A DNA stretch of 37,088 nucleotides from Escherichia phage T7. The position numbers and the translations under genes were made by a program. Below, one piece after another: positions 1 through 37,088 of the stretch (positions are counted from its first letter, which is position 1; every line of letters begins with the position of its first letter). The stretch lies in sequence record OL964748.1; one strand, written 5' to 3'. The notes under the pieces were generated by a model. That model made no database searches. It was not told the origin of the DNA and saw only the letters and a program-made list of their open reading frames with translations.

Positions 1-151
1 TCTCACAGTGTACGGACCTAAAGTTCCCCCATAGGGGTACCTAAAGCCCAGCCAATCACCTAAAGTCAATGACCTTGAGGGTTCCCTAAGGGTTGGGGAT
101 GACCCTTGGGTTTGTCTTTGGGTGTTACCTTGAGTGTCTCTCTGTGTCCCT
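1..151. repeat. Left terminal direct repeat of the T7 genome
   Basis: 1..151 is identical to 36938..37088 at the other end of the window; begins with the canonical T7 end TCTCACAGTGTACGG. Confidence 0.95.
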
Positions 152-160
152 ACCTGTTAC

Positions 161-360
161 AGTCTCCTAAAGTATCCTCCTAAAGTATCCTCCTAAAGTC
201 ACCTCCTAACGTCCATCCTAAAGCCAACACCTAAAGACCCATCAAGTCAACGCCTATCTTAAAGTTTAAACATAAAGACCAGACCTAAAGACCAGACCTA
301 AAGACACTACATAAAGACCAGACCTAAAGACGCCTTGTTGTTAGCCATAAAGTGATAACC
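161..360. repeat. Left-end short repeat array (CCTAAAG-containing 12-13 bp units)
   Basis: Repeated units ending in cctaaag/ctaaag visible directly (tatcctcctaaag x2, accagacctaaag x3, etc.); matches T7 left-end repeat region. Confidence 0.85.
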
Positions 361-364
361 TTTA

Positions 365-427
365 ATCATTGTCTTTATTAATACAATCATTGTCTTTATT
401 AATATAATCATTGTCTTTATTAATACA
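365..427. repeat. Perfect tandem triplication of a 21-bp AT-rich unit (atcattgtctttattaata[c/t]a) abutting phiOL
   Basis: Three head-to-tail copies at 365..385, 386..406, 407..427 (one c/t difference in copy 2); only copy 3 continues into the full promoter core. Confidence 0.9.
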
Positions 428-443
428 ACTCACTATAAGGAGA
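421..443 (+). promoter_or_regulatory. T7 RNA polymerase promoter phiOL
   Basis: taatacaactcactataaggaga, 17-mer core plus initiating region. Confidence 0.85.
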
Positions 444-4279: not shown

Positions 4280-4302
4280 CAATACGACTCACTATAGGAG
4301 AA
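4280..4302 (+). promoter_or_regulatory. Single hybrid T7 promoter phi1.1A/phi1.1B (upstream flank of 1.1A, downstream of 1.1B)
   Basis: caatacgactcactataggagaacc lies 8 bp after the gene 1 stop; gene 1 stop to gene 1.1 start is 109 bp instead of 184 bp. Confidence 0.8.
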
Positions 4303-7275: not shown

Positions 7276-7974
7276 ATGGCTAAGAAGATTTTCACCTCTG
7301 CGCTGGGTACCGCTGAACCTTACGCTTACATCGCCAAGCCGGACTACGGCAACGAAGAGCGTGGCTTTGGGAACCCTCGTGGTGTCTATAAAGTTGACCT
7401 GACTATTCCCAACAAAGACCCGCGCTGCCAGCGTATGGTCGATGAAATCGTGAAGTGTCACGAAGAGGCTTATGCTGCTGCCGTTGAGGAATACGAAGCT
7501 AATCCACCTGCTGTAGCTCGTGGTAAGAAACCGCTGAAACCGTATGAGGGTGACATGCCGTTCTTCGATAACGGTGACGGTACGACTACCTTTAAGTTCA
7601 AATGCTACGCGTCTTTCCAAGACAAGAAGACCAAAGAGACCAAGCACATCAATCTTGTTGTGGTTGACTCAAAAGGTAAGAAGATGGAAGACGTTCCGAT
7701 TATCGGTGGTGGCTCTAAGCTGAAAGTTAAATATTCTCTGGTTCCATACAAGTGGAACACTGCTGTAGGTGCGAGCGTTAAGCTGCAACTGGAATCCGTG
7801 ATGCTGGTCGAACTGGCTACCTTTGGTGGCGGTGAAGACGATTGGGCTGACGAAGTTGAAGAGAACGGCTATGTTGCCTCTGGTTCTGCCAAAGCGAGCA
7901 AACCACGCGACGAAGAAAGCTGGGACGAAGACGACGAAGAGTCCGAGGAAGCAGACGAAGACGGAGACTTCTAA
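7276..7974 (+). CDS. 2.5: Single-stranded DNA-binding protein (gene 2.5)
   Basis: 232-aa ORF with acidic C-terminal tail ...DEDDEESEEADEDGDF. Confidence 0.95.
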   Translation: MAKKIFTSALGTAEPYAYIAKPDYGNEERGFGNPRGVYKVDLTIPNKDPRCQRMVDEIVKCHEEAYAAAVEEYEANPPAVARGKKPLKPYEGDMPFFDNGDGTTTFKFKCYASFQDKKTKETKHINLVVVDSKGKKMEDVPIIGGGSKLKVKYSLVPYKWNTAVGASVKLQLESVMLVELATFGGGEDDWADEVEENGYVASGSAKASKPRDEESWDEDDEESEEADEDGDF

Positions 7975-8394
7975 GTGGAACTGCGGGAGAAAATCCTTGA
8001 GCGAATCAAGGTGACTTCCTCTGGGTGTTGGGAGTGGCAGGGCGCTACGAACAATAAAGGGTACGGGCAGGTGTGGTGCAGCAATACCGGAAAGGTTGTC
8101 TACTGTCATCGCGTAATGTCTAATGCTCCGAAAGGTTCTACCGTCCTGCACTCCTGTGATAATCCATTATGTTGTAACCCTGAACACCTATCCATAGGAA
8201 CTCCAAAAGAGAACTCCACTGACATGGTAAATAAGGGTCGCTCACACAAGGGGTATAAACTTTCAGACGAAGACGTAATGGCAATCATGGAGTCCAGCGA
8301 GTCCAATGTATCCTTAGCTCGCACCTATGGTGTCTCCCAACAGACTATTTGTGATATACGCAAAGTGAGGCGACATGGCAGGTTACGGCGCTAA
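7975..8394 (+). CDS. 2.8: gene 2.8 protein, HNH-type endonuclease-like (GTG start)
   Basis: 139-aa ORF with HNH-like motif (CHRVMSNAP...HSCDNPLCCNPEHL); GTG start immediately after the 2.5 stop. Confidence 0.8.
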   Translation: MELREKILERIKVTSSGCWEWQGATNNKGYGQVWCSNTGKVVYCHRVMSNAPKGSTVLHSCDNPLCCNPEHLSIGTPKENSTDMVNKGRSHKGYKLSDEDVMAIMESSESNVSLARTYGVSQQTICDIRKVRRHGRLRR

Positions 8395-9280: not shown

Positions 9281-9303
9281 TAATTGAACTCACTAAAGGG
9301 AGA
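9281..9303 (+). promoter_or_regulatory. T7 promoter phi3.8
   Basis: aattaattgaactcactaaagggaga. Confidence 0.8.
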
Positions 9304-11164: not shown

Positions 11165-11187
11165 TAATACGACTCACTAAAGGCCAC
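11165..11187 (+). promoter_or_regulatory. T7 promoter phi4.3
   Basis: taatacgactcactaaaggcc. Confidence 0.8.
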
Positions 11188-11305
11188 ACAGTCACGCGCT
11201 CTGGCGATTCGCTCCAACGAACTGGCTGACAGTGCATCCACTAAAGTTACCGAGGCTGCCCGTGTGGCAAACCAAGCTCAACAGCTTTCCAAATTCTTTG
11301 AGTAA
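11183..11305 (+). pseudogene. 4.3: 3' remnant of gene 4.3; ribosome-binding site, start codon and 5' coding region missing (100-bp deletion)
   Basis: Gene 4 stop to gene 4.5 start is 100 bp shorter than expected; remaining sequence runs from the promoter straight into ...KFFE-stop (TAA 11303..11305). Confidence 0.6.
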
Positions 11306-11993: not shown

Positions 11994-14108
11994 ATGATCG
12001 TTTCTGACATCGAAGCTAACGCCCTCTTAGAGAGCGTCACTAAGTTCCACTGCGGGGTTATCTACGACTACTCCACCGCTGAGTACGTAAGCTACCGTCC
12101 GAGTGACTTCGGTGCGTATCTGGATGCGCTGGAAGCCGAGGTTGCACGAGGCGGTCTTATTGTGTTCCACAACGGTCACAAGTATGACGTTCCTGCATTG
12201 ACCAAACTGGCAAAGTTGCAATTGAACCGAGAGTTCCACCTTCCTCGTGAGAACTGTATTGACACCCTTGTGTTGTCACGTTTGATTCATTCCAACCTCA
12301 AGGACACCGATATGGGTCTTCTGCGTTCCGGCAAGTTGCCCGGAAAACGCTTTGGGTCTCACGCTTTGGAGGCGTGGGGTTATCGCTTAGGCGAGATGAA
12401 GGGTGAATACAAAGACGACTTTAAGCGTATGCTTGAAGAGCAGGGTGAAGAATACGTTGACGGAATGGAGTGGTGGAACTTCAACGAAGAGATGATGGAC
12501 TATAACGTTCAGGACGTTGTGGTAACTAAAGCTCTCCTTGAGAAGCTACTCTCTGACAAACATTACTTCCCTCCTGAGATTGACTTTACGGACGTAGGAT
12601 ACACTACGTTCTGGTCAGAATCCCTTGAGGCCGTTGACATTGAACATCGTGCTGCATGGCTGCTCGCTAAACAAGAGCGCAACGGGTTCCCGTTTGACAC
12701 AAAAGCAATCGAAGAGTTGTACGTAGAGTTAGCTGCTCGCCGCTCTGAGTTGCTCCGTAAATTGACCGAAACGTTCGGCTCGTGGTATCAGCCTAAAGGT
12801 GGCACTGAGATGTTCTGCCATCCGCGAACAGGTAAGCCACTACCTAAATACCCTCGCATTAAGACACCTAAAGTTGGTGGTATCTTTAAGAAGCCTAAGA
12901 ACAAGGCACAGCGAGAAGGCCGTGAGCCTTGCGAACTTGATACCCGCGAGTACGTTGCTGGTGCTCCTTACACCCCAGTTGAACATGTTGTGTTTAACCC
13001 TTCGTCTCGTGACCACATTCAGAAGAAACTCCAAGAGGCTGGGTGGGTCCCGACCAAGTACACCGATAAGGGTGCTCCTGTGGTGGACGATGAGGTACTC
13101 GAAGGAGTACGTGTAGATGACCCTGAGAAGCAAGCCGCTATCGACCTCATTAAAGAGTACTTGATGATTCAGAAGCGAATCGGACAGTCTGCTGAGGGAG
13201 ACAAAGCATGGCTTCGTTATGTTGCTGAGGATGGTAAGATTCATGGTTCTGTTAACCCTAATGGAGCAGTTACGGGTCGTGCGACCCATGCGTTCCCAAA
13301 CCTTGCGCAAATTCCGGGTGTACGTTCTCCTTATGGAGAGCAGTGTCGCGCTGCTTTTGGCGCTGAGCACCATTTGGATGGGATAACTGGTAAGCCTTGG
13401 GTTCAGGCTGGCATCGACGCATCCGGTCTTGAGCTACGCTGCTTGGCTCACTTCATGGCTCGCTTTGATAACGGCGAGTACGCTCACGAGATTCTTAACG
13501 GCGACATCCACACTAAGAACCAGATAGCTGCTGAACTACCTACCCGAGATAACGCTAAGACGTTCATCTATGGGTTCCTCTATGGTGCTGGTGATGAGAA
13601 GATTGGACAGATTGTTGGTGCTGGTAAAGAGCGCGGTAAGGAACTCAAGAAGAAATTCCTTGAGAACACCCCCGCGATTGCAGCACTCCGCGAGTCTATC
13701 CAACAGACACTTGTCGAGTCCTCTCAATGGGTAGCTGGTGAGCAACAAGTCAAGTGGAAACGCCGCTGGATTAAAGGTCTGGATGGTCGTAAGGTACACG
13801 TTCGTAGTCCTCACGCTGCCTTGAATACCCTACTGCAATCTGCTGGTGCTCTCATCTGCAAACTGTGGATTATCAAGACCGAAGAGATGCTCGTAGAGAA
13901 AGGCTTGAAGCATGGCTGGGATGGGGACTTTGCGTACATGGCATGGGTACATGATGAAATCCAAGTAGGCTGCCGTACCGAAGAGATTGCTCAGGTGGTC
14001 ATTGAGACCGCACAAGAAGCGATGCGCTGGGTTGGAGACCACTGGAACTTCCGGTGTCTTCTGGATACCGAAGGTAAGATGGGTCCTAATTGGGCGATTT
14101 GCCACTGA
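11994..14108 (+). CDS. 5: DNA polymerase (gene 5), family A polymerase with 3'-5' exonuclease
   Basis: 704-aa [42 protein letters not shown]... Confidence 0.98.
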
Positions 14109-14123
14109 TACAGGAGGCTACTC

Positions 14124-14480
14124 ATGAACGAAAGACACTTAACAGGTGCTGCTTCTGAAATGCTAGTAGCCTACAAATTTACCAAAGCTGGGTACACTGT
14201 CTATTACCCTATGCTGACTCAGAGTAAAGAGGACTTGGTTGTATGTAAGGATGGTAAATTTAGTAAGGTTCAGGTTAAAACAGCCACAACGGTTCAAACC
14301 AACACAGGAGATGCCAAGCAGGTTAGGCTAGGTGGATGCGGTAGGTCCGAATATAAGGATGGAGACTTTGACATTCTTGCGGTTGTGGTTGACGAAGATG
14401 TGCTTATTTTCACATGGGACGAAGTAAAAGGTAAGACATCCATGTGTGTCGGCAAGAGAAACAAAGGCATAAAACTATAG
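14124..14480 (+). CDS. 5.3: gene 5.3 protein
   Basis: 118-aa ORF at the canonical position after gene 5. Confidence 0.85.
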   Translation: MNERHLTGAASEMLVAYKFTKAGYTVYYPMLTQSKEDLVVCKDGKFSKVQVKTATTVQTNTGDAKQVRLGGCGRSEYKDGDFDILAVVVDEDVLIFTWDEVKGKTSMCVGKRNKGIKL

Positions 14481-19209: not shown

Positions 19210-20133
19210 ATGGCTGAATCTAATGCAGACGTATATGCATCTTTTGGCGTGAACTCCGCTGTGATGTCTGGTGGTTCCGTTGAGGAACATGAGCAGAACA
19301 TGCTGGCTCTTGATGTTGCTGCCCGTGATGGCGATGATGCAATCGAGTTAGCGTCAGACGAAGTGGAAACAGAACGTGACCTGTATGACAACTCTGACCC
19401 GTTCGGTCAAGAGGATGACGAAGGCCGCATTCAGGTTCGTATCGGTGATGGCTCTGAGCCGACCGATGTGGACACTGGAGAAGAAGGCGTTGAGGGCACC
19501 GAAGGTTCCGAAGAGTTTACCCCACTGGGCGAGACTCCAGAAGAACTGGTAGCTGCCTCTGAGCAACTTGGTGAGCACGAAGAGGGCTTCCAAGAGATGA
19601 TTAACATTGCTGCTGAGCGTGGCATGAGTGTCGAGACCATTGAGGCTATCCAGCGTGAGTACGAGGAGAACGAAGAGTTGTCCGCCGAGTCCTACGCTAA
19701 GCTGGCTGAAATTGGCTACACGAAGGCTTTCATTGACTCGTATATCCGTGGTCAAGAAGCTCTGGTGGAGCAGTACGTAAACAGTGTCATTGAGTACGCT
19801 GGTGGTCGTGAACGTTTTGATGCACTGTATAACCACCTTGAGACGCACAACCCTGAGGCTGCACAGTCGCTGGATAATGCGTTGACCAATCGTGACTTAG
19901 CGACCGTTAAGGCTATCATCAACTTGGCTGGTGAGTCTCGCGCTAAGGCGTTCGGTCGTAAGCCAACTCGTAGTGTGACTAATCGTGCTATTCCGGCTAA
20001 ACCTCAGGCTACCAAGCGTGAAGGCTTTGCGGACCGTAGCGAGATGATTAAAGCTATGAGTGACCCTCGGTATCGCACAGATGCCAACTATCGTCGTCAA
20101 GTCGAACAGAAAGTAATCGATTCGAACTTCTGA
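19210..20133 (+). CDS. 9: Capsid assembly (scaffolding) protein (gene 9)
   Basis: 307-aa acidic ORF MAESNADVYASFGVNSAVMSGGSVEEHEQNMLALD... Confidence 0.95.
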   Translation: MAESNADVYASFGVNSAVMSGGSVEEHEQNMLALDVAARDGDDAIELASDEVETERDLYDNSDPFGQEDDEGRIQVRIGDGSEPTDVDTGEEGVEGTEGSEEFTPLGETPEELVAASEQLGEHEEGFQEMINIAAERGMSVETIEAIQREYEENEELSAESYAKLAEIGYTKAFIDSYIRGQEALVEQYVNSVIEYAGGRERFDALYNHLETHNPEAAQSLDNALTNRDLATVKAIINLAGESRAKAFGRKPTRSVTNRAIPAKPQATKREGFADRSEMIKAMSDPRYRTDANYRRQVEQKVIDSNF

Positions 20134-20146
20134 TAGACTTCGAAAT

Positions 20147-20169
20147 TAATACGACTCACTATAGGGAGA
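20147..20169 (+). promoter_or_regulatory. T7 promoter phi10 with the gene 10 leader and strong RBS
   Basis: taatacgactcactatagggagaccacaacggtttccctctagaaataattttgtttaactttaagaaggagatatacat ATG. Confidence 0.95.
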
Positions 20170-20226
20170 CCACAACGGTTTCCCTCTAGAAATAATTTTG
20201 TTTAACTTTAAGAAGGAGATATACAT

Positions 20227-36471: not shown

Positions 36472-36494
36472 TAATACGACTCACTATAGGGAGA
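36472..36494 (+). promoter_or_regulatory. T7 promoter phiOR
   Basis: taatacgactcactatagggaga. Confidence 0.9.
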
Positions 36495-36648: not shown

Positions 36649-36798
36649 ATGTTCCGCTTATTGTTGAACCTACTGCGGCATAGAGTCACCTACCGATTTC
36701 TTGTGGTACTTTGTGCTGCCCTTGGGTACGCATCTCTTACTGGAGACCTCAGTTCACTGGAGTCTGTCGTTTGCTCTATACTCACTTGTAGCGATTAG
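36649..36798 (+). CDS. 19.5: gene 19.5 protein (49 aa)
   Basis: MFRLLLNLLRHRVTYRFLVVLCAALGYASLTGDLSSLESVVCSILTCSD; hand-translated. Confidence 0.7.
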   Translation: MFRLLLNLLRHRVTYRFLVVLCAALGYASLTGDLSSLESVVCSILTCSD

Positions 36799-36937
36799 GG
36801 TCTTCCTGACCGACTGATGGCTCATCTATACCTAAAGATAGGCCATCCTATCAGTGTCACCTAAAGAGGGTCTTAGAGAGGGCCTATGGAGTTCCTATAG
36901 GGTCCTTTAAAATATACCATAAAAATCTGAGTGACTA
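36799..36937. repeat. Right-end non-coding region with CCTAAAG-type short repeats, before the right terminal repeat (packaging-signal region)
   Basis: cctaaag motifs visible directly; region is ~100 bp shorter than I expect for T7. Confidence 0.6.
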
Positions 36938-37088
36938 TCTCACAGTGTACGGACCTAAAGTTCCCCCATAGGGGTACCTAAAGCCCAGCCAATCACCTAA
37001 AGTCAATGACCTTGAGGGTTCCCTAAGGGTTGGGGATGACCCTTGGGTTTGTCTTTGGGTGTTACCTTGAGTGTCTCTCTGTGTCCCT
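36938..37088. repeat. Right terminal direct repeat
   Basis: Identical to 1..151. Confidence 0.95.

Follow-up and report, generated by a model that had tools for sequence, protein, structure and literature searches.

Two described systems come closest to the locus considered here. The first is the collection of genome-reduced T7 mutants produced by CiPGr (Yuan, Shi, Jiang and Ma, Nucleic Acids Res 2022; PMC9825161). As set out in the accessible part of that paper, a CiPGr cassette is 200 nt long and combines a 20-nt spacer with a repair template bearing two arms of 50 bp; 'cassette-100' removes a 100-bp fragment and 'cassette-gene' removes a whole gene, with the cassettes directed at genes and likely regulatory elements avoided. 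The same text describes the later mixing of populations from both libraries, sequenced isolates that include T7_100_t2 (7.1% reduced), and undesigned losses including a large 'gp19.5' fragment, some of them attributed to escape mutations. The second system is a group of T7 mutants affected in the M-hairpin, which the available text of PMC2680503 places adjacent to gene 19.5. The M-hairpin deletions cited there (Kim and Chung, Virology 1996; Kim, Kim and Chung, Virology 1997) gave viable phages with small plaques, late lysis and impaired concatemer processing.

A single 100-bp gap after gene 19.5

The window, by which we mean the whole stretch of DNA analysed (37,088 bp, 7.13% shorter than wild-type T7), was aligned to the right end of the T7 reference NC_001604, where the last base of gene 19.5 is 39538 and the first of the right terminal repeat is 39778. 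Between the gene 19.5 stop and the repeat lie 139 bp in the window (36799-36937) and 239 bp in T7 (39539-39777). A first-pass annotation of the sequence had put these distances at about 139 and 239 bp; both figures are exact, and the reference spacing is the longer one. The difference is one gap of exactly 100 bp, T7 39565-39664 being absent, and pairwise and multiple alignments both place it at the junction 36824/36825. The placement is fixed, with zero shift possible in either direction, and thus the junction has no microhomology. Gap size and placement are deterministic results of the alignment, for which chance is not an issue. From T7 38918 to 39564, the window shows no difference from T7. 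The features of the right end, with the left copy of the terminal repeat, are as follows (window coordinates; strand given where one applies).

36472..36494, plus strand: promoter phiOR, TAATACGACTCACTATAGGGAGA, with +1 at 36489 = T7 39229 (NC_001604 annotation, alignment offset 2740)
36649..36798, plus strand: gene 19.5, an intact 49-aa ORF identical to T7 39389-39538
36775..36824: 50 bp left of the junction, putative CiPGr left homology arm, T7 39515-39564, identical to T7 with no SNPs
36824..36825: deletion junction, T7 39565-39664 absent in the alignment
36825..36874: 50 bp right of the junction, putative right homology arm, T7 39665-39714, identical to T7
36878..36937: retained block adjoining the terminal repeat, T7 39718-39777, a second island of conservation in the spacer
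36938..37088: right terminal repeat, 151 bp against 160 bp in the alignment to T7
1..151: left terminal repeat, an exact copy of 36938-37088 with the same 8-bp and 1-bp deletions

The missing 100 bp contains an inverted repeat (39568-39608), the protospacer CCCTATAGAGTCAAGTCCTA (39605-39624) with the PAM AGG, and three degenerate heptamer repeats. The first-pass annotation had described this region as containing short repeats and sequences implicated in concatemer processing, and both descriptions agree with what is absent: the stretch holds the heptamers CCTAAGG, CATAAAG and CCTAAGG, and it is part of the region associated with the processing of concatemers. The right 50-bp flank (36825-36874) holds both retained perfect copies of ACCTAAAG. 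Transcription from phiOR runs through gene 19.5 and the spacer, and ORFs within the spacer are only 22-44 aa long; small minus-strand ORFs are called here in some automated annotations of relatives. The retained block at 36878-36937 is a candidate for the terminase recognition or cleavage context. We also considered the deleted segment itself as an essential pac or cleavage signal and rejected this, since the segment ends 113 bp from the repeat, the block at T7 39718-39777 and the repeat boundary are retained, and siblings with this or larger deletions have been deposited as complete mutant genomes.

Origin of the deletion and of the genome

In a database search, the right end of the window matches in one piece only OL964749 and OL964750 ('Mutant Escherichia phage T7 clone T7_1t2' and 'T7_1t3'), and the junction 36824/36825 is identical in both. 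The differences between the window and OL964749 over the whole genome come to one 75-bp and one 100-bp deletion, two single-base indels and about 19 SNPs. Judged by its sequence, the window is a sibling clone of OL964749 and OL964750. The clone names, the design and the degree of reduction point to the study of Yuan et al. (2022) as the source of these two records; the clone accession numbers were not found in the literature text searched. Compared with NC_001604, the window carries four deletions of exactly 100 bp (T7 8163-8262, 13340-13449 with ambiguous placement, 14172-14271 and 39565-39664). The changes outside the right end are listed by window position.

~574-582: 104-bp deletion with loss of the E. 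coli promoter A2, between GTCAACCGG direct repeats, spontaneous type
~1173-1185: 1480-bp deletion from gene 0.3 into gene 0.7, between AGGAAGTCGAGGA direct repeats, spontaneous type
~4281-4297: 75-bp deletion between promoters phi1.1A and phi1.1B, direct repeats, spontaneous type
5981/5982: gene 1.4, ORF-exact removal of 156 bp, T7 7608-7763, designed edit
6380/6381: gene 1.7, 100-bp deletion, T7 8163-8262, designed edit
~9295-9303: 277-bp deletion of phi3.8/gene 3.8, between AAAGGGAGA direct repeats, spontaneous type
~11181-11190: gene 4.3, 100-bp deletion, T7 13340-13449 (ambiguous), designed edit
11912/11913: gene 4.7, 100-bp deletion, T7 14172-14271, designed edit
17219: gene 7.3, 12-bp in-frame deletion, T7 19579-19590
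17476/17477: gene 7.7, 369 bp removed, leaving the last 24 bp of the gene, up to 24 bp before gene 8, T7 19848-20216, designed edit

The three 100-bp deletions with unambiguous placement (T7 8163-8262, 14172-14271 and 39565-39664) share one layout, namely 40 bp, a 20-nt protospacer, NGG and 37 bp. In all three, the 20-mer starts at offset 40 and the NGG opens the last 40 bp; in the deletion beside gene 19.5, the 20-mer is CCCTATAGAGTCAAGTCCTA at T7 39605-39624 and the PAM is AGG. The fourth deletion, whose placement is ambiguous by 10 bp, fits the same layout at 13344-13443. This layout is met by chance at 6.1% of T7 positions (0.061 per site), which gives about 2e-4 for three out of three. 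Together with the round length, a junction free of microhomology and 50-bp flanks identical to T7, the shared layout leads us to regard the deletion as engineered and directed by a cassette-100 template. The 50-bp length at which the flanks are assigned as putative homology arms is taken from the available text of PMC9825161, and a genome that has edits of both cassette types is in keeping with the library mixing described in that text.

The explanation that best accounts for all of these results jointly, and that we hold to be very probably correct, is that the 100-bp gap is a CiPGr cassette-100 edit in a genome-reduced T7, removing the putative M-hairpin and keeping gene 19.5. A plasmid-borne guide with the spacer CCCTATAGAGTCAAGTCCTA and the PAM AGG would direct Cas9 to cut the phage at T7 39605-39624, and a co-encoded template with two 50-bp arms would repair the break, removing the protospacer and 40 bp on each side (39565-39664). 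The interest that the first-pass annotation saw in the deletion is accordingly not borne out, the gap being a designed CRISPR-Cas9/homologous-recombination edit in a published genome-reduced T7 and not a natural or spontaneous loss. A different rule was also examined, in which the left breakpoint is itself a Cas9 cut. This breakpoint does coincide with the predicted cut of the protospacer 39548-39567/AGG, but the rule fails for the other 100-bp deletions, and we prefer the 40+20+40 rule because it fits all of them.

One observation counts against the designed-edit account. The protospacer CCCTATAGAGTCAAGTCCTA lies 67 bp downstream of the gene 19.5 stop, in non-coding DNA outside every CDS of NC_001604, whereas the cassettes described in the accessible part of PMC9825161 are directed at genes. 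A hidden ORF as the target of the cassette was also sought, and the protospacer lies in no ORF annotated in NC_001604.

We weighed three other explanations of the gap. Deletions by slippage between short direct repeats often arise in T7 during serial passage, and this genome has several that are flanked by direct repeats (104 bp at GTCAACCGG, 1480 bp at AGGAAGTCGAGGA and 75 bp at phi1.1A/B); sibling clones have even lost 189 bp at this very place between ATAGAGTCA repeats. However, a slippage origin sits badly with a junction that has no microhomology, with a length of exactly 100 bp and with an NGG protospacer whose offset is exactly 40, like that of the other 100-bp deletions, and we regard it as highly improbable. 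Slightly less credible again is an untemplated CRISPR escape, in which Cas9 cut nearby and end-joining happened to drop 100 bp: the undesigned losses in the available text of PMC9825161, including the large 'gp19.5' fragment, show that such events were ascribed to escape mutations in some cases, but escape deletions among these clones occur at microhomology and are of irregular size (189 bp), and the 40/20/40 geometry and the round length match a template design. The least credible explanation is a natural strain polymorphism or an assembly artefact by collapse of short repeats, for although the region holds degenerate direct repeats (for example, a 22-nt pair with 82% identity and 37 bp spacing), such a collapse would remove 37 bp and not 100 bp, the same junction is present in two further clone genomes that were deposited separately, and the flanks lie exactly 100 bp apart in about 89 natural and laboratory relatives (101 bp in one record), with the segment lacking in no aligned natural phage.

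The window also differs from T7 by about 45 scattered substitutions, with an excess of G>T and C>A transversions (about 13), and many of its differences from OL964749 are T>G. This pattern could reflect the mutational bias of long passage or sequencing error. Both copies of the terminal repeat lack the 8 bp CCTTCGGT (T7 39848-39855; sites after window 69 and 37006) and one G of a G5 run (T7 39811; sites after window 33 and 36970). The sequence CCTTCGGT forms the apex of the perfect palindrome GTCAACC-TTCG-GGTTGAC (T7 66-82 and 39843-39859). The palindrome is kept in natural relatives, of which Bas103 and IME390 carry a compensatory C-G to T-A change, and the window shares the 8-bp loss only with OL964749 and OL964750. 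A different 18 bp (GGGTTGGGGATGACCCTT, T7 39876-39893, between GGGTT repeats) is lost in T7_110S, 210S, 270S, 5t2 and 80L; this loss removes a second small palindrome, AAGGGT...ACCCTT, and is not strictly coupled to lesions of the hairpin. At the left end, a 21-bp unit, AATCATTGTCTTTATTAATAC, occurs in about three tandem copies at window 364-428, just upstream of phiOL; compared with T7, this array amounts to an insertion of 42 bp in the AT-rich region next to the left-end promoter. The left-end short-repeat array at window 164-236 is reshuffled relative to T7, with the 13-bp unit CCTAAAGTATCCT gained, CCTAAAGCCTACA lost and the net length unchanged, and it appears in a simple alignment as a cluster of 'SNPs' at T7 196-235.

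The removed inverted repeat and its conservation

The element that the designed cassette-100 deletion takes away is the inverted repeat AGGGATTCAGCGGTATGAT-TGC-ATCACACCACTTCATCCCT at T7 39568-39586/39590-39608, which is 41 nt long and has 19-nt arms with 79% complementarity and the loop TGC. It starts 30 bp past the gene 19.5 stop and lies entirely inside the deleted 100 bp, where it is followed by TATAGAGTCAA and then by the degenerate end-region heptamers, all of which are deleted with it. As ssDNA, the 41-mer has a folding energy of -6.7 kcal/mol (z -3.85 against shuffled sequences). Chung, Nardone and Hinkle reportedly described, in 1990, a hairpin end about 190 bp to the left of the terminal repeat, and the centre of the inverted repeat (39588) is 190 bp to the left of the repeat start (39778). 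From its position adjacent to gene 19.5 and this figure of about 190 bp, we identify the inverted repeat at T7 39568-39608 as the likely T7 'M-hairpin'. No coordinates for the M-hairpin were found in the accessible literature, and a term search of the available text of PMC9825161 returned no mention of the element. The Rfam search of the T7 right end gave nothing meaningful, the best match being a yeast snoRNA with an E value of 0.69.

The deletion itself creates an inverted repeat at the junction (36816-36830/36833-36847), which we considered as a substitute for the M-hairpin and rejected. Its folding energy of -4.7 kcal/mol is equalled or exceeded in 17.6% of random 100-bp deletions of T7, and the inverted repeat made at the junction is consistent with chance.

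The inverted repeat is unchanged in the natural T7-like phages Bas103, Salmonella 3A_8767, IME390 and ESh1, while the adjoining gene 19.5 varies. In the T3 group (T3, phiYeO3-12, 536_P3, Klebsiella 066044 and mtp14, and Erwinia ZCEA1), the 41-mer has 10 differences from that of T7. Eight of these 10 fall in four compensatory pairs (from T7 to the T3 group, A-T to G-C, G-C to T-A, G-C to A-T and A-T to G-C), the other two are unpaired and none breaks a pair, and the predicted fold of the T3-group 41-mer has a dot-bracket structure identical to that of T7. In Przondovirus, the basal stem AGGGAT/ATCCCT is preserved, while the apical stem is different and longer. The motif is also present in 70 T7-like contigs of IMG/VR, with the variation within each type mostly in the loop. 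Along the spacer, the proportion of invariant columns among 10 phages of two genera is highest in the inverted repeat (76%), compared with 19% in the middle 53 bp and 63% in the 60-bp block at the repeat. The inverted repeat is foldable, conserved and covarying, and these comparisons indicate a hairpin structure under selection and argue that the removed element is functional. That the hairpin has been conserved in three Studiervirinae genera, with compensatory changes, argues for a genuine structural role in the maturation of concatemers.

T7 concatemers have a single copy of the terminal repeat at each junction (PMC10438801). Each packaged genome therefore requires the synthesis of a second copy. 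Chung and Hinkle's model reportedly has the displaced strand fold back at the M inverted repeat and prime synthesis across the terminal repeat before the terminase cut. Deletion of the hairpin would remove that primer and would leave the terminase genes, the block adjoining the repeat and the repeat itself in place, and a phage without the hairpin would rely on a hairpin-independent route. If the hairpin does have this priming role, and if the clone behaves like the earlier M-hairpin deletions, we would expect a viable phage with less efficient concatemer processing. A fitness effect cannot be assigned to this deletion alone because the genome has about 12 other indels and about 45 SNPs. The first-pass annotation had made the functional interest of the deletion depend on a viable phage; viability itself can be presumed, since the window belongs to a family of plaque-purified clones, several of which were deposited with this or larger deletions.

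Hairpin lesions in sibling clones and comparison with known mutants

Four distinct lesions of the 41-nt hairpin are found in deposited CiPGr clones, namely the designed 100-bp deletion, a 189-bp deletion, the substitution T39591C and the triple substitution A39572G+A39590T+C39592G. T39591C occurs in 12 clones (including MZ375247) and the triple substitution in two (MZ375239 and OL964740). All of the point changes break predicted stem pairs, and the apex changes (39590-39592) lie outside every canonical SpCas9 protospacer. The 189-bp deletion is found in T7_110S, T7_210S and T7_270S (MZ375254, MZ375274 and MZ375286), between ATAGAGTCA direct repeats at T7 39416 and 39605, and it is probably the event that the accessible part of PMC9825161 records as an undesigned loss of a large 'gp19.5' fragment. 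Among the natural phages examined, no allele with a hairpin lesion was found. The number of independent hairpin events is limited by the shared ancestry of the clones.

Two side observations concern these clones. With A39590T+C39592G, CATCAC becomes CTTGAC and matches the reverse complement of GTCAAG further downstream, a change that has the look of a templated quasi-palindrome mutation. In T7_210S and T7_270S, a further 8 and 24 bp, respectively, of the retained spacer have been lost.

Two palindromes inside the terminal repeat have also been deleted, in different lineages. We examined a strict coupling of hairpin lesions with terminal-repeat deletions and rejected it: both were present in all seven clones examined first, but MZ375243, MZ375251, MZ375253 and MZ375239 combine hairpin SNPs with an intact repeat, and the association is confounded by the shared ancestry of the clones. 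We consider it rather unlikely that the CiPGr regime or a reduced genome favours loss of the hairpin instead of just tolerating it. Were this so, hairpin-forming elements at the concatemer junction of T7 would carry a conditional cost, and the published 'gp19.5' signal could partly reflect an effect of a cis element.

The deletion in the window is thus already known on both counts, as an engineered and published edit and as the loss of an element already reported to be non-essential. The second count also bears on the first-pass annotation, which had presented the loss as noteworthy: if the removed element is the M-hairpin, its dispensability had been reported before (Kim and Chung, 1996; Kim et al., 1997, as cited in the available text of PMC2680503). 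The edit is likely counted under 'gene 19.5', and it keeps this ORF and removes a conserved, putatively cis-acting hairpin. Edits scored as 'gp19.5' may be knockouts of a cis element, and the phenotypes of such clones are not to be ascribed to gp19.5.

Compared with the CiPGr cassette-100 design, the window shows the same loss of exactly 100 bp with an SpCas9 20-nt protospacer and NGG at its centre and a clean junction, the same company of further 100-bp and whole-gene deletions in the genome, and the same junction as T7_1t2 and T7_1t3. It differs in that the target here is outside annotated genes, and the window is set apart from both siblings by 75-bp and 100-bp indels and about 19 SNPs. The 189-bp deletion of T7_110S, T7_210S and T7_270S likewise removes the inverted repeat and is tolerated, but that loss is spontaneous, extends over most of gene 19.5 and spares the heptamer repeats that are missing from the window. 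The T7 mutants lacking gene 19.5 and the 'm' or M-hairpin region, as cited in the available text of PMC2680503 (Kim and Chung, 1996; Kim et al., 1997), share with the window the loss of the inverted repeat adjacent to gene 19.5 in a viable phage, whereas in the window gene 19.5 is intact and only the candidate cis element and 59 bp of flanking repeats have been lost.
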